From the IMG/VR virus record IMGVR_UViG_3300020036_004254: 64,000 bases of DNA. One strand, given 5' to 3'. This document shows positions 3,094-55,957 of this stretch, one piece after another (position 1 is the first letter of the stretch; the number at the start of each line of letters is the position of its first letter). The DNA comes from a virus (lineage: Duplodnaviria; Caudoviricetes). A model generated the notes under the pieces. The model was not told where the DNA came from, ran no database searches, and saw nothing but the letters and a program-made list of their open reading frames with translations. Made by a program: the position numbers and the translations under genes.

Positions 3094-3261
3094 AAGAGAA
3101 AAGGTGTTCCCGGTGCAATCAACGTATTATTGTGGAATCAAATTCAAGGGTTCCGTACTTTTGCTCTGAGCGATGCAATGACCTGTGGGATAAAGAGTTG
3201 GCGTATCAGGAGCAAATGACTGATGCGGAAGGGGCTGATTACGACCTGAGGGAGTACTGAA

Positions 3262-3522
3262 ATGATAAAGTTTCGTCGGCACGTTCCAAATTTCGTAGAA
3301 CTTGATAAGATGCCAGAAATCCAAGAATTCGATTTTGTCGATTCTATGCTCAACGACGAATGGATTGGGGGATTTCGAAAGATTCCAAATAACTTCTATC
3401 GTTTTTCTATCTCCGGTCACTATCTGATGGCAGAATACGATAACGGGAAGGTTTGGTGGGTTGTTGGTTATGTTGTTGAGGGTGATGTAACATCACTCCC
3501 AGATTGGGTGCCAAAGAAATAG
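3262..3522 (+). CDS. hypothetical protein
   Basis: 86-aa ORF with GGAG RBS. Confidence 0.6.
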   Translation: MIKFRRHVPNFVELDKMPEIQEFDFVDSMLNDEWIGGFRKIPNNFYRFSISGHYLMAEYDNGKVWWVVGYVVEGDVTSLPDWVPKK

Positions 3523-3606
3523 GAAGTGTGACCGGAATGGTAACGGCCAGTCCTGCTAAGACTGCGTCTCGCAAGGGACATCAGAGTTCGACTCTCTGCG
3601 CTTCCG
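3522..3606 (+). tRNA. tRNA-Ser(GCT)
   Basis: CAGTC-CT-GCT-AA-GACTG; long variable arm. Confidence 0.93.
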
Positions 3607-3639
3607 TTGTAAGTAAACATTTAACAGGAGTTTTTTTAT

Positions 3640-3828
3640 ATGCACGATAAGAATGGTAAGTTGATTTCGGTTGGGGATACGGTAAGATTGGTTGGTAAAG
3701 TGACTAATTGTGCTACTGGTGATGGTTCGTTTTGCTCTGTTCAAGTTGAGCTTGAGGGAGATTGGGACGGTAAGGGGAATCTTGGTTCCACTTGGTGTTC
3801 CGCTAAACAGGTTGAAGTGGTAGAGTAA
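3640..3828 (+). CDS. small KOW/SH3-like protein (paralog 1)
   Basis: MHDKNG..ISVGD.V; AGGAG RBS. Confidence 0.65.
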   Translation: MHDKNGKLISVGDTVRLVGKVTNCATGDGSFCSVQVELEGDWDGKGNLGSTWCSAKQVEVVE

Positions 3829-3829
3829 C

Positions 3830-4012
3830 ATGAGAGACGCAAACAGCATTCCGATTTCGGTTGGTGACTATGTCACTATTGTCGGACGGGTTTCAAGAGT
3901 TGGCGAGCTAGGAGAAACTTTTCCAATTCGTGTTGAAATCGTTGGGAAGAATGGAGCAATCGAGAATGTCCACTTCTCTCCTGAGTCGTTGAGAGTTTCT
4001 GTACCAGCGTAA
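3830..4012 (+). CDS. small KOW/SH3-like protein (paralog 2)
   Basis: MRDANS..ISVGD.V; tandem paralog of 3640..3828. Confidence 0.6.
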   Translation: MRDANSIPISVGDYVTIVGRVSRVGELGETFPIRVEIVGKNGAIENVHFSPESLRVSVPA

Positions 4013-4016
4013 ATTC

Positions 4017-4089
4017 GCGGGTGAAGTTCATATGGTTGAACACTGGTCTTCCAAACCAGTTGTAGTGGGTTCGAATCCCATCACCCGCT
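4017..4089 (+). tRNA. tRNA-Gly(TCC)
   Basis: CTGGT-CT-TCC-AA-ACCAG. Confidence 0.95.
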
Positions 4090-4112
4090 CTACAATTTTT
4101 TAGGAGAAGACA

Positions 4113-4844
4113 GTGATTTACGTGTGGGGAGATTGCCACGGAAACTTTGAGGCGGTGCAGAGAATGAACCGCTTCTGCACACCAGAGGATATCATCATTC
4201 AGGTGGGTGACCTTTCGACCAACGTTTCAACCAAGATGATTTGGGAACAGTTGTATCCGTCTGTGGTGCCTACCGTGCTGTACATCGATGGTAACCATGA
4301 AGACCACGACCTGATTGACACATGGCCCAAGCATGAGCCATATCAAGTGGCTAAGAATCTCTTCTACGTCCCTCGTGGTATGGTTCTGACCTTGGAAGGC
4401 TTTCGCATCGGGTTCTTGGGTGGTGCCGAGTCTGTTGATAAGTACCGTCGCAACCTTGAGGGTCAACCCAAGACTTGGTGGGCGCAGGAAGGTATTCGGC
4501 AGGATGATGTGGACCGTTTGGTGAAGAATGCGGGTGGAAAGGATTTGGATTTCCTCATTACACACGCCCCACCCAACTCTGCTAAGATGGGGATGTTTCC
4601 CAAGATTGATACAGAGAAGTGGGATTTGCCAAGCAACTGGACCGACCAATCATGCCAGTTTGTTGATGTGGCAATGGTCCTAACAAACCCAAAGAAGGTA
4701 TTCTGCGGTCACATGCACAAGTCGGTAAAGGTTAACAACGTTCAAATTCTTGCCATTGATGAGGTAGTTCCGCTATATGATTTGTACACACCAATGGAAA
4801 GAACTGCGGAAACGGGTGACACCACCGAGACACGCGAACTTTGA
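4113..4844 (+). CDS. calcineurin-like metallophosphoesterase
   Basis: GDCHG, GD, GNHE, THAPP and GHMH motifs. Confidence 0.9.
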   Translation: MIYVWGDCHGNFEAVQRMNRFCTPEDIIIQVGDLSTNVSTKMIWEQLYPSVVPTVLYIDGNHEDHDLIDTWPKHEPYQVAKNLFYVPRGMVLTLEGFRIGFLGGAESVDKYRRNLEGQPKTWWAQEGIRQDDVDRLVKNAGGKDLDFLITHAPPNSAKMGMFPKIDTEKWDLPSNWTDQSCQFVDVAMVLTNPKKVFCGHMHKSVKVNNVQILAIDEVVPLYDLYTPMERTAETGDTTETREL

Positions 4845-19193: not shown

Positions 19194-19481
19194 GTGGTGA
19201 CTTCTATTATTCGAGCGTTCAAACGAAAACGTCCACCCGGATTGCGTACAGAGTATAACATAACCCTTTCGTGTGGACATTGGTTCCCGTTTGTTCATTT
19301 TGAAACTGACCCAACAGGACAAGAGTATCACTGTAAGGATTGTGAACGCTATGCGGGGTTGGTTTGTAGAGAATGTGGAAAACCTGCATGGAAAGAGTGT
19401 AATATTTTTTCCACGTTTGGTTTTCTCTGTGGAGAACTTTTGTGTATAGATTGTAAAGGGACACACCCTCATCGCCCTTGA
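19194..19481 (+). CDS. hypothetical Zn-finger protein
   Basis: L.CGH and multiple CxxC. Confidence 0.55.
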   Translation: MVTSIIRAFKRKRPPGLRTEYNITLSCGHWFPFVHFETDPTGQEYHCKDCERYAGLVCRECGKPAWKECNIFSTFGFLCGELLCIDCKGTHPHRP

Positions 19482-23692: not shown

Positions 23693-23902
23693 ATGCACTA
23701 CGTGATTAAAGACAAGGGAAAAACTCAGTATTTCGCAGAGAGAGGTTCGTCGTTACTCAAACACATTTGGTCTACTGAGGTGCGCGAGGCCATCAAGTTT
23801 GAAACGGTGAGTGACGCCGCGTGTATGTGCGGTAAACTGACTTTCGATTGTGTGGAGATTGTCAAGGTGGAATATAGCAAACCCACCCTGACGGTGATGT
23901 AG
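23693..23902 (+). CDS. hypothetical protein, family B
   Basis: YVI...W...A..F.T pattern shared with 26726, 30273, 31174, 32914. Confidence 0.65.
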   Translation: MHYVIKDKGKTQYFAERGSSLLKHIWSTEVREAIKFETVSDAACMCGKLTFDCVEIVKVEYSKPTLTVM

Positions 23903-26725: not shown

Positions 26726-26992
26726 ATGACCAAGAGTAAGACGTTCTACGTCATCACCCGCCCCACAAATATGTATAGTTCTGGATTTCTGGCAAATGTG
26801 CAGGGTAGCGAAGGGTACTGGAAAGAAAGTATTGAATCGGCAAAACAGTTCAGCACCATCAAAGAGTTGGCTGGGTTTCTTGTCAACAAAACCAAAGAAG
26901 GTTGGCATGATTTTGGTGGAAATCCCATCGGCATTTCCCGCGTCGATGTGGAAGAGGTTACCACCGTGAAGAACATCGTCATCGCTCTCTAG
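26726..26992 (+). CDS. hypothetical protein, family B
   Basis: YVI...W..SI..AKQF.T. Confidence 0.65.
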   Translation: MTKSKTFYVITRPTNMYSSGFLANVQGSEGYWKESIESAKQFSTIKELAGFLVNKTKEGWHDFGGNPIGISRVDVEEVTTVKNIVIAL

Positions 26993-27270: not shown

Positions 27271-27727
27271 GCTTCACCTGTACACTCCCCCAAGCCAAAC
27301 GGTAAACCCTGCGGAAAAACCATCAATGGCATGACCGGACTGATGGAACTGAACAATCTCCGCAAACACATCAATCGGCACACCCATCTGGTGGTCAATA
27401 CCGACGCCCTCACCGCACGAGTAATGATGGAAGACGGGGAAGTTCCGCCGTACACCATTATTCCCTAACCCAAACACAGGACACCCCATGCACATTACCC
27501 GCCATACCCCAGCCTTCGTCCCCCCTCCGTCCACCAACACCATTGATGGAATCACCGACGACGAGTTGTCCGCACTCCTTGCGCTGATTGGCCGTACCAC
27601 GTGTGGTCCCCTGACTCGTCTGTACGATAGGATTAAAGACCACATGGACGCTCATCAGGTTGAGCATAAGTATATTGTTCCGGGTGGTGTTATTCCCATC
27701 AACCATCGTAAGTAGAGGACACCACAA

Positions 27728-27743
27728 TGTTTCACGTGGAACA
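27728..27743. promoter_or_regulatory. parS site
   Basis: TGTTTCACGTGGAACA, 1 mismatch to TGTTTCACGTGAAACA. Confidence 0.8.
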
Positions 27744-28051
27744 ATACACGCAACGGGCCAAAATCAACGGAAAAAATACGTTGCTCTTTCGTTCTGTTGT
27801 CTTCAGCAAAAAGACCCACATGTTCGTTGACGATACGTGTCTGTACGACACAACGGAAGAGGCCGAGCGAGAGGGAAAGATTCTGGTGAATCTGTACACC
27901 GAGCGAGCCAAGGCCGAGGCCGACGGTTTTCCTGTACAGAGTTCTTCGGAACTGGACAACGGACTGACCCCGGATTAATCAGGGAAACCCCGACTGACAA
28001 CGGGGTTGGTCCAGACTATCATTCGGTCATCACCTCCTGAGGAGAAACCCC

Positions 28052-29786: not shown

Positions 29787-30272
29787 TTGCCATTTATCTT
29801 GTGGTGTTTGGAACACTTGCTATTGCTTCTATCGTTGGGTTGGTTGGGACCATGGTAGAAGGAGCGGACTTTGGTTACGAAGCGTTTTGGGCTATTTTCC
29901 TCTGGCCAATGGCGGTGTACAGAATGATTCGGGGAAAGCCCAAAAAGAAATTCACCGTTCATGTGAATACCTTTCATGCCATGGAAGCCAAATGGGTCAA
30001 AGGTGTTCTCGAAAAAGCCAATCTCTTGGTGGAAACCGGAATCGCCCCAGCCGACGCCGTCTGGTCCGTTATTTCCGACCAACACCAACACACCACCCTG
30101 ATGTTGGCCGACGGCAACGGACCCAAGTTCACCCCCAAATCCCCAGAAGAACTGTACAAAATGGTGACCAAGACTACGTTCACCGAGTACGTGGACGACG
30201 AGTACATGTATAACAACCTCCCTTGACAAACAGCACCCCACCCCTTACCATTCTCTACGAGGAGACAACCCC

Positions 30273-30488
30273 GTGAAATACTACGTGATTCGCTTCAAAT
30301 CCTTTACCTGTGAACCCCACGAGTTCGAGTACCTTTCCAACAAGCGTGACGTAATGTGGTCGTTAGATGCGGACAAAGCCGCTCAGTTCCAGACCGCAAC
30401 CGAGGCCATGCGGTACGCCGCCAAGAATAAGCTCGACGCCTCAGATTTGGTCGAAGTGACCACCACAAAAACCTTCACCGTTATCTAA
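30273..30488 (+). CDS. hypothetical protein, family B
   Basis: YYVIR...W...A.QF.TATEA. Confidence 0.65.
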   Translation: MKYYVIRFKSFTCEPHEFEYLSNKRDVMWSLDADKAAQFQTATEAMRYAAKNKLDASDLVEVTTTKTFTVI

Positions 30489-30497
30489 GGAGATTTC

Positions 30498-30803
30498 ATG
30501 ACCATGCGGAAAGGTCGTCCAAAGAACACCCCGCAGTTCTTCCCCATCAAGCCGTCCAAGCCCACGTTTGAGGCCCGTATCGGGTTCATCCCCGCACACT
30601 CCGTCTATATTGGTCAGGACGGTGATACCTACGGACCCAGAGAATTCAGTCAATGGTTCTACGAGACTGAAAATGGACAGTTCTACTCCGAGGATTGCCT
30701 CAAGATTCTCCTGAGAGACTGCGTTCCGGATAGTATTCAGAACAATGACCTCCTGCTCAGTCTGGCCGACACCTACCGAGCCGCAACTTCAGGGAAAGCC
30801 TGA
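30498..30803 (+). CDS. hypothetical protein with N-terminal RKGRPK
   Basis: AGGAG RBS. Confidence 0.65.
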   Translation: MTMRKGRPKNTPQFFPIKPSKPTFEARIGFIPAHSVYIGQDGDTYGPREFSQWFYETENGQFYSEDCLKILLRDCVPDSIQNNDLLLSLADTYRAATSGKA

Positions 30804-30845
30804 CAGACACACCAGTCCCACCACGCTAGACTTCTTCATGTAAGG

Positions 30846-31126
30846 CACAGCACCTAACGTCTCATGCCCCTCCGTTGGTCCATACGTTGTATCGTGGCTC
30901 TACGCAACCACCGATGTTTTCCTAGGAAGCCCCTCGTGCGCTTGCGATTCGACCTCGACCCGTTTTCTGGTCTAAACGCGATGCCTCTGAACCTTAGCTC
31001 TGCTGTGATGAGAACAAACCTCGGAAACCCGTTCAGGGGCGAGAAAAGGGGTGGCAAAAAGAATGCTGAACCCATTCCAGATTGCTGTTCTCAAGGGGCG
31101 GTTGGTCATCGACGGGTGGCCAACCC
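30846..31126 (+). ncRNA. putative ~280-nt structured RNA/leader
   Basis: box promoter at 30791; CACAGCA/TGCTGTG, GCCTCTGAAC/GTTCAGGGGC, TGAGAACA/TGTTCTCA pairings; terminal hairpin. Confidence 0.45.
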
Positions 31127-31134
31127 CTCTCCTT

Positions 31135-31150
31135 TGTTCCACGTGAAACA
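31135..31150. promoter_or_regulatory. parS site
   Basis: TGTTCCACGTGAAACA, intergenic. Confidence 0.85.
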
Positions 31151-31173
31151 CTTCCCACACCGGAGAACCCACC

Positions 31174-31383
31174 ATGTACATCATCAAACGCCGTGCCAAT
31201 TACCGCTTTTACCAGCGTTCAAGCACGTTCTGCTCCACCATTGACGAGGCCAAACAGTTCGAGACTCAGCACGATGCCATCATGGAGCTTCTAACGGTCT
31301 ACGGCAAGTCCACACCCCATTTTGTTGACGAGGGCCTGAGCATCGTCAAAGTCCGGGTCAGGGTCGAAGAGATTCCCGAGTAA
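31174..31383 (+). CDS. hypothetical protein, family B
   Basis: YIIK...IDEAKQFET..DA. Confidence 0.65.
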   Translation: MYIIKRRANYRFYQRSSTFCSTIDEAKQFETQHDAIMELLTVYGKSTPHFVDEGLSIVKVRVRVEEIPE

Positions 31384-31648
31384 TGGGCTGGCACCCAAAT
31401 GACCGGGGAACCTCCCTCAACCCGTGGAACCCCAAGTCACCAAAATACCACAGAACACAACCCACCCCACGCCAAAAAACTGTCCTCAAAAGAGGACAGC
31501 AGAACTGCCCCTGTTCTCTTTCCACAAGAATGATGACCAGCCCCGGCGCACCTGAACACAATATGTGCATGGCCTGTGGAAAGAAACACGACACTTGACA
31601 AACCCGTGGTGACCGCTTAACATTCTGGTAACCCAACAGGAGAACCAC

Positions 31649-31975
31649 ATGACCGAAGCCCAAGCATGGCGAAAACTCGCAAAATGGTGCGGAACTGGAA
31701 ACCCGGAACGCCGCGCCTTCCTGTGTGACCGCCTCAGTGGACGGTTTGATGGGTCTGACTCGTATGGCCCAGACACCGCAGACCCCTTGCCAAAAGGACT
31801 CCCCCGTACCAAGATGTACGACCGTATTGCCAACCACAACCCCAGTGGTATTGAATGTCTCATCGTTGAGGATGACAAGGGTCCATTCCGCAACGCCTCC
31901 ACGGACAATCACCCCAGAGTCATCTTCTGCCTCCTCATGGCAATCGAATGCGAACTTGAGGGTTTCCCCGACTAG
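31649..31975 (+). CDS. hypothetical protein, family C
   Basis: paralog of 29478..29786. Confidence 0.7.
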   Translation: MTEAQAWRKLAKWCGTGNPERRAFLCDRLSGRFDGSDSYGPDTADPLPKGLPRTKMYDRIANHNPSGIECLIVEDDKGPFRNASTDNHPRVIFCLLMAIECELEGFPD

Positions 31976-32592
31976 CGTTTCCCAAAATCCCGTCGCACAA
32001 ATCACAATGCAAGCCGTCGTCAAAAGTCTGTACGAAACCTTCCGAAAAGAGACAACCCCGTGAAAGTTACCTCCGTCACCAAAATCCGCGAAATCGTCCT
32101 CACCCTCTCCATTGAGGAAGCCCAGAATCTCATCGACTTTAGTGATATCGTTGGCGACTCCTTGCTAAATCCCCATAATGTCTACGCAACAAAAGCAGAC
32201 AATGGACGATTCGCCCTGTACGAACTGCGTCGATTCCTCGGGTCCGCCATCCACAAAAATGCGTAACCTCTCACTCTTCCTGTTCTCCTATTACGACCAC
32301 TGGGCCTACGGCGGTTTCGAAATGAAAGAAATCGCCGTCGTCGCCAATACCGAATCGGAAGCCCTCGGAATGATTCTGGACAAATACCCAGAAACCACCC
32401 CCACCAAATGGTGTCATAACAGTGTCGATATGACACGGCCCAACATCATCGAACTGTCCGAACGCTCCTCTTGACAAACACTGGGGTATAGGTTAGTATT
32501 CATCCGAGAGCCGTGTTCCACCCCGTCAGCCGTCATCCGTATCCCCACACACGAAGCCGTTCGGTTTGTACTGGAAGCCTACAACCGGAACG

Positions 32593-32671
32593 TGTGGAGA
32601 AATAATCCCACGTGGAAACAGATAGAGTTATCCACACCAGATGTGGATAAGTCGCCGTAAAATGTGGATAA
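32593..32671. promoter_or_regulatory. DnaA-box cluster
   Basis: TTATCCACA 32628-32636; TGTGGATAA 32642-32650 and 32663-32671; 1-mismatch TGTGGAGAA at 32593. Confidence 0.8.
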
Positions 32672-32913
32672 CCTCGGGAGAAAGTCATTGGTAACCATTC
32701 GGTTACTTAACATTATCTTGAAGTATTCTCAGTGAACCATTTGGTTCAGTGTCCTAATAATGAGACACCAACTAAATCTCAAGGGGTTACGCTCCGAGAA
32801 AGATTTTTTCACCGGGATTGTTCAATCATTTCGGTGTGGTGGACGTAGATTGGAACGTTGGTGAAAACATGTGGTTAAACGTTGGGTCAACCCCTTGAGA
32901 GGAGTGGAAAACG

Positions 32914-33129
32914 GTGAAATATTTTGCGATTCGGGCGTCCGAGACGGATTGGACGGTGCCTAATCAGTACGTGGCGAGCCGTGGTCGTCCGGTGCAGTGG
33001 ACGCGGGACGTAGACGATGCGGTGCAGTTTGGCACGGCGACAGCGGCCATGAATTTTGCGGGACTTCGTGGGATTTCTGCGGCGGTGTTGGTGGAGGTGT
33101 CTCACGAGGTGGTGGTTCGGGAAATCTAG
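32914..33129 (+). CDS. hypothetical protein, family B
   Basis: KYFAIR...WT..V.DA.QF.TATAA. Confidence 0.65.
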   Translation: MKYFAIRASETDWTVPNQYVASRGRPVQWTRDVDDAVQFGTATAAMNFAGLRGISAAVLVEVSHEVVVREI

Positions 33130-34069
33130 GGGAAACCCTGACTTGCGTGGAAGCGAGCAAGCGAGTACTTTTCGTCCCATGAGACAGCCTATCTGCCCCG
33201 CCCGAGACTTTGGCACGTGTTCCTTCAGCAACAGCACGGGTCCGTCCTTGTGTGTGTTTTGTGGGACGGCCCATCCTTTCCCCCCGGAGAATTCTGTGGA
33301 AAACGAGTTGGTCAAGCCCAACATCAATCTGAACGGTTCTGACGGGATGGAGTTGGCTCGTCAGTACTACGAGGCGGCACAGGCGGTTGAGAACGCCGCA
33401 AATCTCATGGGGCGACTCGTCCACGGTCGGGACTATCAGGGGTCACCGGACGGTGCCTACGAGCGAGCCTACCAGCAGATGGTGGAGCGTCTCAAGCCCA
33501 TGATTTCTGCGTACAACGACCTGAAGGCGATTGCGGAACATTGTGTGGAGGAAGCCTGATTCAGGGAAACCCTGACTAGCGCGGGGTTATCCCGTGAGAT
33601 ATTGTTAGTTCACACCTTTCAGACAGGAGTTGTGTTATGGACGAGGTAATGTTCAATGCCAAGGAGCGAATGACGCAGGAGCTTCTGGTGGCCAACACGG
33701 GTCATTTGCTGGCCTTGGGGTGGTCGGAGAGTGCGGTGGTGCGCCATTGTGAGGCGGTGGCGACCGAGTACTTCGAGCGGTTGGAGAAGCGGGTGAGGGA
33801 GCGGGTCAAGTAGTGTCTGTGCAGAGTTGAAGCCACTGAGTAATGCTAGAGCGGCGCGTTTCCATCTTTGAGTGGAAGGAAAGGGTTTGTCGCGTACTTT
33901 AGAACCCACAGACATTACCTGTTTTCTCTTGGGGGAAAGGAATACTGGCCATTTGAATCGGAGCAAAGTCCTTTCCCCCGGAGAATCGGGGAATCCCTGA
34001 CTAGCGCGAACGTTGGACTGGTTGTAGCTTCAATCGTGTAGGGAAACACTAACCCAAACGGAGTGACCG

Positions 34070-34225
34070 ATGAGCAAGACGGCGAAGACCAAGGGCGAGA
34101 AGGCCAAGTGGATGCGTATCTCGACGGCGCGGGATTTCAAGACCTCGCACACGGCGGGGATGGTGTTCAAGGCGTCCGACCGGGACTACGTGGTGACCGC
34201 TGACGGTTCGTGGCGGCGTAAGTAA
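34070..34225 (+). CDS. small basic protein (absent from the ORF track)
   Basis: 51 aa; box promoter at 33988, GGAG RBS; Y.V..DGSWR motif shared with the C-terminus of 6210..6767. Confidence 0.6.
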   Translation: MSKTAKTKGEKAKWMRISTARDFKTSHTAGMVFKASDRDYVVTADGSWRRK

Positions 34226-34432
34226 GCGTTCTCTTGGGGTGACTGACGTGGATACACCCTGTGGCACATAGCCTGACGCGGTCACCCCTTGAGATTTGAC
34301 CAGACCTGAAAACCCCGATTTGTTTATGATGGGTGAGTAGCCGCTGGTCAAATCTTTTCAGGGAATCCCTGACTTGCCGGTTGGTGGGTCAGGGGTTACC
34401 TTTCTGGTGTACACTCCACCGAGAGCATACCG

Positions 34433-39847: not shown

Positions 39848-40187
39848 GTCTCAGGGGGTTGTGGACTCGCCCCTTGAGCGTCTTTTTTGTTCAAAACGTA
39901 AACCCAAACGTTGCGCCAAACGCAAAGCGAAACGTTGCCACTCGGTATTTTTGCGCTATGTGCAACTCCTCTGACACTCGCACGGCATCCCCGGAAGCGC
40001 AAGGGTTGTCGTTCCCCCTTGAGCAAACAGAATCCGCCGAACGGCGAGCAACCAAGCGTCGGCGTCTACGGCTCATGCTCTTGCACCTTGGCCACTGGAT
40101 TCTTTCCAGTGCAGTAACCAACATGAGCGAAGCTCAACTAGACGCGATGCTCTTGCTCGTCCACAGTGCAGACCCGAACAAGCTGTA

Positions 40188-40260
40188 GGCTGGCACGGAA
40201 CTTGCAGGCGCACGGGCTGGCACGGAACTTGCAGGCGCACGGGCTGGCACGGTTTTTGCT
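40188..40260 (+). repeat. 27-bp tandem repeat, each unit carrying a sigma54 -24/-12 consensus
   Basis: TGGCACGGAACTTGCA at 40191 and 40218; TGGCACGGTTTTTGCT at 40245. Confidence 0.8.
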
Positions 40261-40441
40261 TCCCGTGCGTTCATCCCGACGACGGAAAAAAGTTCGGGTT
40301 CCCACTTGCGGAAATGGAATCGCCCCCTTACCCTTCCTGAAGGGCCGAAATGCCCGGCAGGGTTTTTTGACAATCGGGGGAAAAATGTTCGCCCCGAATG
40401 GGCGCGAACCATGTTCCCCCACTTTTCAGGGAGCTACAAAG

Positions 40442-41506
40442 ATGGCGCACGAACTGGAACAGAATGAAGAGGGAACGTCGTTTTTCCAAGTGGTGCGGGA
40501 AGGTGTCGCGCTTGCGTGGCACAATCTCGGCAAGTATTTCACTGCCGACGAACGGCCCAACACAACGGCGGAAGCTCTGAAGCTCTGCCGTGGTGACTTC
40601 GAAGTCGAAGTCAGGCCCCAGACTTACACCGCCTACACTTCCGACGGTGACACATACCAACGGGAAAGCACGCTGTCGGCGGCTATCGTCCGGACGGACA
40701 ACAACGTCGAAGTGGGGAGCGCGACACCGGGATATACGGTGATGCAATTCAGTGAGGCGATGCGGAACCTTGACCCGTTCATCGGGGAAGGGTTGGCGAC
40801 AATCGAGACGGCTGGCGTCTTCCGCAACGGTGACAAGGCTTTCATGCTCATGCGGTGGAATATCGAACGCTTTGGCGACCTTTGCCGGGAAGCGTTCGGG
40901 GACAGCATGCGAGCCTACGGGCTGGCCACGGCATCCCACTCTGGCCGGGACGGTATCTGTTTCTACGATACCGATGTCACCGTGGTGTGCCAGAATACGG
41001 AACGGGCCGCCGTCAATGGGTCCACCTCCAAGTTCATGGCGAAGCACTCGCGCAAGGCTGGGACGCGAGTCGTGGACGGTGTGACCAAGCTTTGGGGCGG
41101 AGTGGTCGCACAGCGTGAGGAAATCGGACGGGCAATCCTTGCCCTCCGTTCCCTGACGTTGGACGAAGCGACCTTCCGGGCAATGGTGCTGGACGTTATC
41201 GCACCACTGCCGCAAGAGTCGAAGAGCTTCGACCCGAGCGCGAAGTTCGCCAACACGATGGTCCGACGGGCAGAGGAAAAGAGGCTTACGCTGTCAAGCC
41301 TCTGGCACAACGCACCGGGACACGTTGGTGACGGGTCGGCTTGGGAAGCGTACAAAGCGGTGACGCATGCCGCCGACCATAGCGGTGTCCTTTGGTCGCC
41401 CCGGTCGCTGGAATCACGGGCCGAGGGACTGCTAGAGGGTCCGATGGTCACCGCCAAGAATGCGGTCTATAACGGACTGCTGGAACTGGCCACGGCAGGG
41501 AAGTAA
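40442..41506 (+). CDS. DUF932 (LGT_TIGR03299-like) phage/plasmid protein
   Basis: MAHE start, AWH.LG, RTD, Y...Q, ETAG....G, SH.G, VVC.NT, KH and SAW..Y.AVT..DH motifs. Confidence 0.8.
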   Translation: MAHELEQNEEGTSFFQVVREGVALAWHNLGKYFTADERPNTTAEALKLCRGDFEVEVRPQTYTAYTSDGDTYQRESTLSAAIVRTDNNVEVGSATPGYTVMQFSEAMRNLDPFIGEGLATIETAGVFRNGDKAFMLMRWNIERFGDLCREAFGDSMRAYGLATASHSGRDGICFYDTDVTVVCQNTERAAVNGSTSKFMAKHSRKAGTRVVDGVTKLWGGVVAQREEIGRAILALRSLTLDEATFRAMVLDVIAPLPQESKSFDPSAKFANTMVRRAEEKRLTLSSLWHNAPGHVGDGSAWEAYKAVTHAADHSGVLWSPRSLESRAEGLLEGPMVTAKNAVYNGLLELATAGK

Positions 41507-51844: not shown

Positions 51845-52383
51845 ATGGAATCAAGAAAAGAAATAACATCTGCGTCAGAAAAATTGTTTTTTGCTAGGTT
51901 AATGCCGTAGGCAACAAACTGAACGTTCCCCTGAATGTAACCTTTAGAAGAATCGATTCTATCCAAAGAAGCAGAAGTCAACCCCATTTTCTCCCCATTT
52001 TTTTGAAGTGTTATTGGGACGTTTGACAAGCTACACCTTTCAGTCCATATAGATTGAAGATATTCTTCCGTAAGTTCAGAAAACGTATTACACGAATCGA
52101 AAGGAAGCCCGTCTTTAAACTTCCGGTTTCTAGCTTTTCTTAAGATGTATGTGAACTTTCCTTTTTTCTTTCCGGGTCTTCCGGTGTTAAATTTTTGTAG
52201 TCTTTTGATATTTCTAAGTACCTCTTCGCTTGTTCTGTTTTTCAATCGAAACGTCGAAGCACAAGACAAGGAACAAAAGAACGTTGTGCGTCCTTTTTTG
52301 GTCTGACGGTTATATTCCCCGTTTATATACCAAAAAGATTTTGAACAAACGCCGCAGTTGAGTTGTATGTGAGTTTTTGACAT
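51811..52383 (-). CDS. His-Me-finger (HNH-type) endonuclease
   Basis: C..C...FCS..C N-terminus; SLDRIDSSKGY..GNVQ.V....N..K; true start MSKTH at 52383. Confidence 0.8.
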   Translation of the reverse strand: MSKTHIQLNCGVCSKSFWYINGEYNRQTKKGRTTFFCSLSCASTFRLKNRTSEEVLRNIKRLQKFNTGRPGKKKGKFTYILRKARNRKFKDGLPFDSCNTFSELTEEYLQSIWTERCSLSNVPITLQKNGEKMGLTSASLDRIDSSKGYIQGNVQFVAYGINLAKNNFSDADVISFLDSIHTSRFKSNSA

Positions 52384-52400
52384 GTTGGATGATAGTAAAA

Positions 52401-52666
52401 TGTTTTGCAGAAAGGTTTCTTGGACGGGAGATTCGAAGCTCCCCGCCTCCATTCTGTTTATACCGTCTACATTTTGTTTTCGGGGGCGAAATGGATTCGA
52501 CAGGGAATTAAGTACACCAAAACCGCTATCCGAAAAGGCGAAGGGCCGTAAGCCCTAGCGAAAACTTAAAGGAGAATAACAACTATTCGACCTTGCTTCT
52601 TTCTGGTGCGCTTCAAGCCGCCTAAGGAAACTGAGCATCGCCCACTTGGAAACAGAACGGGCAATC
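52401..52666 (+). ncRNA. ssrA: circularly permuted two-piece tmRNA
   Basis: acceptor piece ...CGCCTCCA (52451) precedes coding piece GGGGGCGAAATGGATTCGAC (52482); G3.U70; tag ENNNYSTLLLSGALQAA* at 52572-52625. Confidence 0.9.
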
Positions 52667-52698
52667 CTTCTCGGCATATCTTCGGGTGTGCCGAGAAG
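52667..52698 (+). terminator. stable hairpin downstream of tmRNA
   Basis: CTTCTCGGCATATC-TTCG-GGTGTGCCGAGAAG. Confidence 0.7.
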
Positions 52699-52774
52699 TT
52701 CTCGTTTGGGGGGTTGACAAGCCATGGCAGACCGACTACATTTCTTACATGAACCCCTTACCAAAGGAGTGACA

Positions 52775-53910: not shown

Positions 53911-54369
53911 ATGACTACATGGGCAGAAGAAATGAATGCACAGCTTCGCTGGGACAGACGGTTTATTGAAATGGCCGAGTTGGTGTCTACGTGGAGCAAG
54001 GATACCACCAAGGTGGGGTGTGTCATTGTCGGTCCAGACAAGGAAGTGCGGTCTGTTGGATACAACGGATTTCCACGTGGGGTCAAGGAAACCGCTGAGA
54101 AGACAGAACGCCCCGAAAAGTACCTCTGGACCGAACACGCCGAGCGTAACGCCATCTACAACGCCGCTCGCATGGGGTTGAGTCTCAAGGGATGTACCTT
54201 GTACTGTTCGTGGGAGCCGTGTATGGAATGTGGCCGTGCCATCATTCAATCGGGAATTGACACGGTGGTTGCGAAAAAACGTGATGATGCTGGTAAATGG
54301 GGTGAAGAATTTTACAAATCGTTGGTTATGATTCAGGAAGCGGGTCTAGAATTCAGATACATTCTATGA
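53911..54369 (+). CDS. dCMP deaminase
   Basis: SKD..KVG, GYNG.P.G, HAE.NAI, PC..C. Confidence 0.9.
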   Translation: MTTWAEEMNAQLRWDRRFIEMAELVSTWSKDTTKVGCVIVGPDKEVRSVGYNGFPRGVKETAEKTERPEKYLWTEHAERNAIYNAARMGLSLKGCTLYCSWEPCMECGRAIIQSGIDTVVAKKRDDAGKWGEEFYKSLVMIQEAGLEFRYIL

Positions 54370-54950
54370 GTCCGTTCAAGGCATATGAAATGTACATGCA
54401 TCTGAAGTTACATTTCACTTCGGATACATACGATGTACGTAAGTACCCCATGAAAAGAATGTCGGTGACCTCGTTTGAAAAGGGTACGATTAAGTTTAAA
54501 TTGTTCAAGCTGACGCAGAAATATAATGATATTCAGCTTCGGGAGTACTTTATTGCTAACTTCTTGAACGGTGATAAATACGGTGGGATGTATAATGCCA
54601 ATGCAGACGAGGTTTTATTGGATTGGCAAAAGCGCGTTCAGGGCTTGACATACCACTACAGACAGGATATATTGCATCTTCAGGAACAAGGGGTTGAAAC
54701 TCCTGATATGGCTTGGTCTGGTGACAGCCATCCCCTTCTCGCCAAGGAATATTTGGGTAAGCGCATCAATTTGGAAACCCTTGTCATCCTCGACAAACTA
54801 TTTAATTTTCGGCCCGTGGTCGATAAGCGTTTGACGGATGATTTTATGTGGAATCCGATTTCTAAGTTGATGTACAAATACGAACCATTCCTTACGTTTA
54901 ACAAGGAAGATTTTTTGGAGGCGACCAAAAGAGTCTTCGCACCCCGGTGA
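54366..54950 (+). CDS. helicase loader (T4 gp59-like)
   Basis: Y..LKLHF....YD..KY, HP.L...L...I..ETL.IL, KY.PF; lies before gp32. Confidence 0.85.
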   Translation: MSPFKAYEMYMHLKLHFTSDTYDVRKYPMKRMSVTSFEKGTIKFKLFKLTQKYNDIQLREYFIANFLNGDKYGGMYNANADEVLLDWQKRVQGLTYHYRQDILHLQEQGVETPDMAWSGDSHPLLAKEYLGKRINLETLVILDKLFNFRPVVDKRLTDDFMWNPISKLMYKYEPFLTFNKEDFLEATKRVFAPR

Positions 54951-55027
54951 GAACATCTTTTGTTATGGTTGGACCATTGTTCATACACCGTTATATACCG
55001 TTATACACCGCAAAAAAGGAGCTACAC

Positions 55028-55957
55028 ATGTTTACCAGTTTGAGAGAAATGCGTAACAAGGGCAGTGATTTGTCCAGTTTGGTCAAGCAGGTCGAAGACA
55101 CGACCAAGAAGAGTTACGAGAAGGAAGAAGAGGGTACGTTTTGGTCCCCTCCGGTAGATAAAGCAGGAAATGGTATTGCCATTATCCGCTTTATGCCAGC
55201 CCCCAAGGGGGAAGACGCCGAGTTCGTTCGCCGTTGGGACCACGGATTTCAGGGTCCGACAGGCAAGTGGTACATTGAGAATTCTCTGACCACGCTTGGC
55301 CCGGATTTCAAAGACCCTGTCTCTGAAGACAACAGCCGCCTGTGGGCACTTGACACCACAGATGACGGCCCAAACCGCAAGATTGCGCGTGAGCGCAAGC
55401 GTCGGTTGAACCACTATTCGAACATTTTGGTCATCAAAGACCCAGCCCGTCCGGAGAACGAGGGCAAGGTGTTCTTGTTCAAGTACGGCGTGAAAATCTT
55501 TGACAAGATTAAGAGCGCGTTGAAGCCACCCGTTGAGGGAATGGCGACATTCAACCCTTTCAACTTGTTCACGGGTGCGAATTTCCAGTTGGTGGTGTGC
55601 AATGTTGCCAAGCGTCGAAACTACGACCAGAGCATGTTCCTTGCTCCGGGTGAAATCCTCGGACCTGATGGCAAGCCCTACTCTGACGATAAGTTGGATG
55701 AGTTGTGGAACCAGTGCCGCTCGCTCAAGGATTTCCTTGATGCTAGACACTTCAAGTCTTACGAAGTGCTGAAGAAGCGGTTTGAGTTTGTCACGAACGC
55801 CGCTCCTGCCGCCGTCAGTGCTGGTGTGAAGGAAGAGAAGCAACCAGAACTGAAGAGTGAAGAGCCAAAGAACATGAAGACTTCTACTCCTGTTGAGGTT
55901 GATGAAGACCCAGAGGATACAGAAGAGTACTTCAAGAGCTTGGCGAATCAGGACTAA
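55028..55957 (+). CDS. single-stranded DNA-binding protein (T4 gp32-like)
   Basis: DKAGNG.A.IRF.P, HGFQGP.GKWYIENS.TT, NEGKVFL.KYG.KIFDK, acidic tail. Confidence 0.95.
   Translation: MFTSLREMRNKGSDLSSLVKQVEDTTKKSYEKEEEGTFWSPPVDKAGNGIAIIRFMPAPKGEDAEFVRRWDHGFQGPTGKWYIENSLTTLGPDFKDPVSEDNSRLWALDTTDDGPNRKIARERKRRLNHYSNILVIKDPARPENEGKVFLFKYGVKIFDKIKSALKPPVEGMATFNPFNLFTGANFQLVVCNVAKRRNYDQSMFLAPGEILGPDGKPYSDDKLDELWNQCRSLKDFLDARHFKSYEVLKKRFEFVTNAAPAAVSAGVKEEKQPELKSEEPKNMKTSTPVEVDEDPEDTEEYFKSLANQD

Follow-up and report, generated by a model that had tools for sequence, protein, structure and literature searches.

The locus described here raises the question of whether a lytic phage of the T4 type, which encodes replication proteins of its own, could start replication at a site that recruits the initiator protein DnaA of its host. 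T4-type phages are the textbook example of host-independent replication, which proceeds from R-loops and recombination intermediates, and we know of no T4-like origin that makes use of DnaA. DnaA boxes are, on the other hand, well known from plasmid origins (e.g. that of P1) and from the origins of temperate phages. The window, by which we mean the whole 64-kb stretch of DNA that was analysed, derives from a distant T4-like phage. It carries a gene for a gp32-type single-strand-binding protein (54947-55957) and, directly upstream, one for a gp59-type helicase loader (54366-54950), together with genes for baseplate and tail proteins, PhoH and dCMP deaminase, 16 tRNA genes, one tRNA-like call without a usable anticodon and one tmRNA-like call. 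The last of these, made by ARAGORN at 52361-52716, has an unusual tag peptide, and a consensus promoter lies just downstream of it at 52714. The best tblastn match of the gp32-type protein is to Stenotrophomonas phage DLP6 at only 48% identity, followed by cyanophages and Caulobacter phage Cr30.

The centre of the window (24-46 kb) has a higher G+C content and is crowded with small ORFans. DNA comparison with the phage collection returned no close relatives, the ORFs that flank the locus matched no protein family, and a search of IMG/VR with these flanking ORFans returned no relatives. The sole close match is a 4.6-kb metagenome contig of 99.6% identity, which is too near for a test of conservation; a product 97% identical to that of the 98-aa ORFan left of the locus is called on a JGI contig. 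A relative with 62% identity in a neighbouring gene has a single perfect DnaA box in 127 kb and lacks the cluster described below.

An initial annotation had placed an oriC-like locus in a gap of ~430 bp. The gap itself is real: between 32475 and 32913 there is no ORF that has a ribosome-binding site, 415 nt are untranslated, and independent gene calls on the 99.6% identical contig leave the same gap. Its left end is marked by a consensus early promoter (Table 1). This promoter belongs to a stereotyped class (cccTTGACAAAC, a 17-nt spacing, TAnnnT) that occurs in about 30 rightward copies and one leftward copy in the window, as a rule with a ribosome-binding site and start codon 19-35 nt further on; examples of the form cccTTGACAAAC-N-TAnnaT are found at 19478, 24635, 30223, 31595, 35265 and 37815. 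At the gap, the leader instead runs for 415 nt to the next start codon, and where leaders are long elsewhere in the window (promoters at 8, 9370 and 35265), a tRNA or tRNA-like gene follows. We searched the gap for an intrinsic terminator and found none; the search for an iteron array returned short palindromes only, and the gap holds no initiator gene. CtrA boxes, their half-sites and GANTC sites, which mark alphaproteobacterial origins, show no enrichment, with none in the gap.

Two further repeated motifs were seen in the region. The palindromic motif AGGG-WWW-CCC-YGAC occurs at 21 sites from 21794 to 41826 (0.3 expected), mostly at the ends of + strand genes, and probably represents a second class of promoter or terminator cassette. 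Between 40191 and 40260, in the 5' part of a 446-aa ORF (40166-41506), there are three tandem perfect sigma54-type -24/-12 motifs (TGGCAC-N5-TTGCW) with a 27-bp period, an array that may simply be a 9-aa coding repeat.

Table 1. Coordinates of features in and around the gap, numbered from the first letter of the window.
Feature	Position	Strand	Remarks
parS-like site TGTTTCACGTGGAACA	27728-27743		overlaps start codon of ORF 27727-27978; 4.9 kb left of the boxes
Gene block with C-/A-rich synonymous sites	30050..32600	+	
parS-like site TGTTCCACGTGAAACA	31135-31150		24 nt upstream of ATG 31174, behind a GC-rich stem-loop; 1.5 kb left of the boxes
ORFan, 98 aa, final gene of the C/A-rich block	32178..32474	+	from the ORF list; GC3 skew -0.37
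Consensus early promoter TTGACAAAC-N-TAGTAT	32471..32499	+	predicted start near 32506
One-mismatch DnaA box TTCTCCACA	32593..32601	-	
DnaA box I, perfect TTATCCACA	32628..32636	+	
Gene block with G-/T-rich synonymous sites	32640..34300	+	fades by ~36 kb
DnaA box II, perfect	32642..32650	-	faces box I head-to-head, 5-bp spacer
DnaA box III, perfect	32663..32671	-	same direction as box II, 12-bp gap
Two related palindromes, GGTAACC-ATTC-GGTTAC and CAGTGAACC-ATTT-GGTTCAGTG	32691..32751	.	42 bp apart; AACCATT(C/T)GGTT type
Easily melted stretch (DUE-like)	32703..32782	.	least stable 80-mer of 24-46 kb
Long inverted repeat	32777..32900	.	perfect 12-nt arms 100 nt apart, nested 11-nt arms
One-mismatch DnaA box TTAACCACA	32870..32878	-	melted stretch on its 5' side, read as TGTGGTTAA
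First gene of the G/T-rich block, 71 aa	32914..33129	+	GAGGAG ribosome-binding site 32899-32904; GC3 skew +0.62

The three DnaA boxes that had been reported at 32628, 32642 and 32663 are all perfect copies of TTATCCACA and the sole perfect copies in the 64-kb window. As ~0.74 copies are expected per window, the presence of three inside 44 bp is not attributable to chance. With the one-mismatch boxes on either side, the gap holds three perfect and two one-mismatch boxes across 286 bp. Boxes I and II form the string TTATCCACA-CCAGA-TGTGGATAA, and box I matches II as well as III by complementarity that extends 1-3 nt past the 9-mers. On the predicted transcript the perfect boxes would occupy positions of about +122 to +165 and the gene would start at about +408, so that the boxes stand between the promoter and the gene.

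Downstream of the boxes, the palindromes AACCATTCGGTT (32693) and AACCATTTGGTT (32735) of the initial annotation proved to be genuine and, within the window, unique to the gap. They are contained in the easily melted stretch, an 80-mer that begins 31 bp past box III and ranks in the top 0.65% of the window, exceeding the regional mean by ~3.3 SD. A TGT-N12-ACA element had also been pointed out; it is present, as a 5-bp GTGTC/GACAC hairpin, but is unremarkable in itself. The IHF-like sites proposed at 32779 and 32888 did not survive, being only partial matches (TCAA-N4-TTR), and of the nine matches to the full IHF consensus WATCAANNNNTTR in the window, none falls in the gap. The two putative sites correspond to the arms of an inverted repeat that is perfect over 12 nt (32777-88 and 32889-900), and they lie more than 100 bp from the boxes. 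The right arm includes a -35-like TTGAGA and overlaps the ribosome-binding region, and both arms are members of a motif family (CAAGGGG/CCCCTTG) with a six-fold excess in the window, largely as the -35 flank of promoters. The gap region folds better than shuffled sequences (z = -3.5), as does the opposite strand (z = -4.3). An RNA family was considered for the gap and set aside, since there is no Rfam match and both strands fold equally well; with plain Watson-Crick stems only, nothing marks an RNA over symmetry at the level of DNA.

The switch in strand composition that had been seen by eye was borne out by measurement. From 30.0 to 32.5 kb the GC skew is about -0.2, and from 32.6 to 34.2 kb about +0.2; the upward step at the gap is the largest in the window (+0.40 with 1-kb arms, the next being +0.25). 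A two-segment fit to keto/amino composition over 30.05-35.3 kb locates the change point on the boxes, at 32640 (support 32552-32814). It is the third codon positions that carry the flip (C3 0.44 and G3 0.20 in the left genes; C3 0.30 and G3 0.42 in the right), while codon positions 1 and 2 keep the normal coding pattern of + strand ORFs. GC3 skew ranges from -0.3 to -0.6 in the seven left genes and from +0.35 to +0.62 in three of the four right genes, and it is graded with distance on both sides: approaching from the left it declines, first from about 0 (near 27 kb) to -0.3 and then, in the genes adjoining the gap, to -0.49 and -0.61, and moving away to the right it runs +0.62, +0.56, +0.35 and then about 0 by 36 kb. 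AT3 skew moves in the opposite direction to GC3 skew. In an automatic set of 114 + strand ORFs, from which ORF 32914 (+0.62) was left out for its overlap with ORF 33056, the two most negative GC3 values lie just left of the gap and the second most positive (ORF 33637, +0.56) just right of it. The reach of the skew is nevertheless local, at 2-4 kb per side, and the negative block starts abruptly at 30.05 kb. A minimum of cumulative GC skew had been predicted near 32.8 kb; a minimum does occur near the gap, but because the G-richness of the + strand returns to the left of 30 kb, it is a local minimum and not that of the window.

Several sources of the flip were considered. The genes do stay on one strand, as had been claimed: all are on the + strand, the promoters point rightward, and ORFs 30273 and 31174 on the left are paralogs of ORF 32914 on the right. 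Coding on the minus strand of the C-rich block is thus ruled out by the codon-position pattern, the rightward promoters and the paralogs across the gap; a long minus-strand ORF at 31358-32023 matched no family. Promoter class is ruled out likewise, as both cassette types, including AGGG-WWW-CCC-YGAC, occur on both sides, and the genes behind other consensus promoters have no comparable positive skew. With paralogs, rightward promoters and both cassette types astride the gap, amino-acid content, coding strand and promoter class therefore fail to explain the flip. Were the skew step and the boxes unrelated, the probability of a separation of no more than a few hundred bp in 64 kb would be, by our estimate, well under 1%. 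The paralogs belong to a family of ~70-aa proteins (MKY.I...W..D.A.QF.T...VEV) scattered across the early region (23693-23902, 26726-26992, 30273-30488, 31174-31383 and 32914-33129), whose synonymous G/C skew differs strongly by position.

To place the box arrangement in context, we scanned bacterial genomes, one per species, for boxes I and II with a 5-bp spacer followed by a third perfect box, and recovered at least 120 loci. The gap to the third box is helically phased, with at least 82 loci at 2-4 bp, at least 31 at 10-14 bp and at least 12 at 18-24 bp. The 10-14 bp class, which is that of the phage, adjoins dnaA and/or dnaN in 20-21 of 31 loci among the matches listed, and is found within multi-box origins or just upstream of dnaA; for the 2-4 bp (DARS-type) class the corresponding figure, again among the matches listed, is 6 of 82. 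In several Bacillota loci (L253, L339), an I-N5-II-N11/12-III triple stands between the promoter region and the dnaA start codon, and triples just upstream of bacterial dnaA genes are apparently operators. Beyond the boxes, no homology between the gap and bacterial origins was visible by eye in the aligned flanks. The perfect DARS-type triple (I-N5-II-N2..4-III) is common in Gamma- and Betaproteobacteria (loci L227-L346), including Lysobacterales, Chromatiales, Methylococcales, Nitrosomonas, Competibacteraceae, Rhodocyclaceae and Neisseriaceae, and almost never adjoins dnaA, dnaN, uvrB, mutH or rppH. In two bacterial contigs (L298 and L346), an N5/N11 triple has a perfect parS-type GTTTCACGTGAAAC on both sides within ~100 bp, so that a box triple and parS can adjoin one another directly in a bacterial chromosome.

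Among viral contigs, an exhaustive three-box scan found only three loci that share the triple type of the phage. In one (L354, IMGVR_UViG_3300036818_000107, 3103-4317), the triple is accompanied by four iterons (acccgtctaaaagtagac-like) within an O-like/DnaD-like initiator gene whose immediate downstream neighbour encodes a DnaB-like helicase; this is a lambda-type origin context with DnaA boxes. In the second (L116) the triple is in a promoter region, and in the third (L355) it is upstream of an ORF that resembles, by eye only, a LexA-type winged-helix repressor. The head-to-head 5-bp pair occurs commonly among viral contigs, yet its counts were rejected as functional evidence, because 46 of 117 are a coding coincidence: in these 46 contigs (loci L003-L115), TTATCCACA-N5-TGTGGATAA encodes YPQVMWI in a 238-aa phrog_12985 / head-tail adaptor-like protein, a conserved string that constitutes a trap for motif-based origin finders. 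Intergenic pairs stand upstream of assorted genes, and the full DARS-type triple with a 3-bp gap was found at 11 of the 117 viral loci having the pair. From the viral data we have relied on the phasing of pair spacing and the exhaustive three-box scan only.

Compared with known systems, the gap shares features with several and was not assigned to oriC, DARS or datA, since one defining feature of each is missing from it. In layout it matches oriC and dnaA-flanking clusters of bacteria (dnaA-dnaN type, e.g. Rubrobacter, Binatia and Bacillota loci), which have the same order of TTATCCACA, 5 bp, TGTGGATAA, 11-12 bp and TGTGGATAA; these clusters further resemble the phage in adjacent AT-rich DNA, a skew inflection and parS within a few kb. 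Bacterial origins, however, have many more boxes, and their DnaA-trios, where visible, lie 5' of tandem TGTGGATAA boxes, whereas the phage gap has three strong boxes, no trios, no dnaA or dnaN nearby and a skew that is local only. The orientation also differs, in that both E. coli oriC and a bacterial locus of our scan (L231) have the unwinding element and the trios 5' of the TGTGGATAA reading, while in the phage the 5' side of boxes II and III, read in the same way, is occupied by box I with no TAG-type trios, and the AT-rich stretch is 3'.

In the DARS cores of E. coli, boxes I and II stand head-to-head with a 5-bp spacer (PMC6868365). The MG1655 sequence reads TTATCCACT-ATTCC-TGTGGATAA at DARS1 and TTATCCCAG-CTTTC-TGTGGATAA at DARS2, so that the phage shares with these cores the I-II arrangement and a box III placed head-to-tail with box II. 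The gap between boxes II and III is ~3 bp in DARS1 compared to 12 bp in the phage, where the element sits behind a promoter and has no consensus IHF site. The datA locus of E. coli is likewise a non-coding cluster of DnaA boxes away from any origin gene, but it requires a larger number of boxes and an IHF site between particular ones, and the gap has neither. The T4 origins oriF (uvsY) and oriG (gene 34) consist of a promoter and a downstream unwinding element and are primed by R-loops. The gap resembles them in the T4-type replisome of the phage, in a strong promoter that leads into an easily melted non-coding stretch and in G-rich transcript DNA downstream; it differs in that the T4 origins have a middle-mode promoter with the unwinding element directly behind it and no DnaA boxes, whereas here the melted stretch is ~200 nt downstream of the predicted start with the boxes in between. 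Finally, the lambda-type origin of the viral contig L354 has the same I-N5-II-N12-III triple within a phage replication module, but with iterons, an O-like initiator and a DnaB-like helicase, in contrast to the gap, which has neither iterons nor an initiator gene.

Four independent signals thus fall within ~150 bp: an origin-type box triple, an easily melted stretch, a skew change point and a promoter-driven untranslated stretch. Their simplest common cause would be a site at which both strands are repeatedly and asymmetrically exposed, i.e. a replication origin, and we tentatively propose, at a little below an even chance, that the gap is a promoter-coupled, host-DnaA-assisted origin of this T4-like phage. 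Host RNA polymerase would start at the 32471-32499 promoter and transcribe ~400 nt that encode no protein, while host DnaA would sit on the three consensus boxes 120-165 nt downstream. DnaA binding and transcription together could help to open, or to hold open (possibly as an R-loop), the palindrome-rich DNA at 32703-32782, where the gp32 and gp59-type loader of the phage would then assemble forks. Repeated single-strand exposure on either side might in turn leave synonymous sites C/A-rich on the left and G/T-rich on the right. We infer that DnaA binds, that the DNA opens and forks assemble there, and that skew and replication are linked.

The DnaA-primed origin suggested by the initial annotation thus keeps the box geometry, the adjacent melted stretch, the change point on the boxes and the long untranslated leader in its favour, and has against it the local skew, a non-canonical box orientation, the lack of trios and a T4-type helicase loader of the phage's own. 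With a gp59-like loader and gp32 encoded by the phage, neither DnaB nor DnaA would be needed in principle. The strong boxes number only three, and the local skew, with a + strand that is G-rich left of 30 kb, is not what a replichore-wide effect of an origin would produce. The absence of the cluster from the 62%-identity relative and the apparent use of the same triple as a dnaA operator in bacteria also count against an origin. Modified cytosines, if present in the phage DNA, could affect DnaA binding.

The operator-like use in bacteria leads to a different account, which we consider unlikely, in which the triple is a DnaA-dependent operator in a long leader: bound DnaA would block or modulate read-through into the genes from 32914, thereby tying early genes to the replication state of the host, and the skew would be unrelated. 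The order of promoter, boxes and gene over a leader of 415 nt suits this account, as do the triples between promoter region and dnaA start codon in L253 and L339, the viral triple upstream of an ORF that is repressor-like by eye only (L355), and the lack of an intrinsic terminator in the gap, by which read-through would be the default. It leaves unexplained, however, why the composition change point falls on the boxes and why a stretch of low stability adjoins them; nor does it account for the 245 nt of palindromes that separate boxes from gene, and no obvious benefit to a lytic phage is known. The boxes might alternatively be directed at the host: in the manner of datA, DnaA could be soaked up by the hundreds of copies of these three high-affinity sites that accrue during multiplication of the phage DNA, or the head-to-head pair could strip ADP from DnaA in the manner of DARS, and host initiation would be altered in both cases. 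Boxes I and II match the DARS1/DARS2 core in orientation and 5-bp spacer, box III is directed like box II, 11 of 117 viral pair loci have the full DARS-type triple with its 3-bp gap, and the nearby parS-like sites suggest a wider habit of carrying sites for host proteins. Yet the gap between boxes II and III is 12 bp and not ~3 bp, and among the matches listed it is the bacterial 10-14 bp class that is mostly linked to origins and the 3-bp class that is not; a consensus IHF site, needed by both datA and DARS2, is absent from the gap, the strong boxes are only three, and the skew and promoter go unexplained. T4-like phages, moreover, usually shut the host down by other means. We regard such a host-directed cluster as quite improbable, and its datA-like form, which the initial annotation had offered as an alternative, fails on the missing IHF site that defines datA and on the small number of boxes, the 5-bp pair being DARS-like and not datA-like.

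It would also be possible, if more improbable again, to dispense with DnaA and to view the gap as a junction of shuffled promoter-gene cassettes or as a structured leader or non-coding RNA, the boxes being hairpin arms (I with II or III) and the skew reflecting separate histories of the blocks. The complementarity of box I to II and III for 1-3 nt beyond the 9-mers, folding better than that of shuffles (z = -3.5), a right half made up of a long inverted repeat of a promoter-linked motif family, the RNA genes driven by the other long-leader promoters of the window, and the abrupt start of the negative block at 30.05 kb are all in keeping with such a view. Against an RNA, the opposite strand folds at least as well (z = -4.3), the stems are plain Watson-Crick and Rfam has no match, and chance is unlikely to give a hairpin arm the exact 9-mer DnaA consensus together with an oriC-type geometry. 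Against a junction, paralogs and both cassette types stand astride the gap, and the skew is graded by distance and not flat.

The proposal of a DnaA-assisted origin is also favoured by, and can be extended with, two chromosomal-type parS-like sites left of the boxes, each matching the universal ParB site at 15 of 16 positions (~0.03 expected). The pair is placed as parS sites are around bacterial origins and suggests a host with a ParABS system. In its full form, the extended proposal is that a lytic T4-like phage that has a replisome of its own has assembled a bacterial origin region in miniature, with an oriC-type triple, an unwinding element and parS, at which host DnaA, and perhaps ParB, start or organise early replication and leave a local mutational footprint on the flanking synonymous sites. 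We advance this version as a doubtful one. In the literature searched, a DnaA-box triple at a skew dipole in a lytic T4-like phage has not been described.

If the origin proposal is true, a T4-type member that recruits the initiator of its host would change the picture of host independence for this group, and origins in uncultured T4-like genomes could be sought by a simple sequence signature in which an oriC-type triple and a melted stretch coincide with a local skew dipole at synonymous sites. The locus would also be a natural test of the function of the head-to-head 5-bp DnaA-box pair outside the DARS of E. coli. If, on the other hand, its role lies in early gene regulation or in soaking up DnaA, the locus would represent a new means by which a lytic phage could read or disturb the cell cycle of its host.
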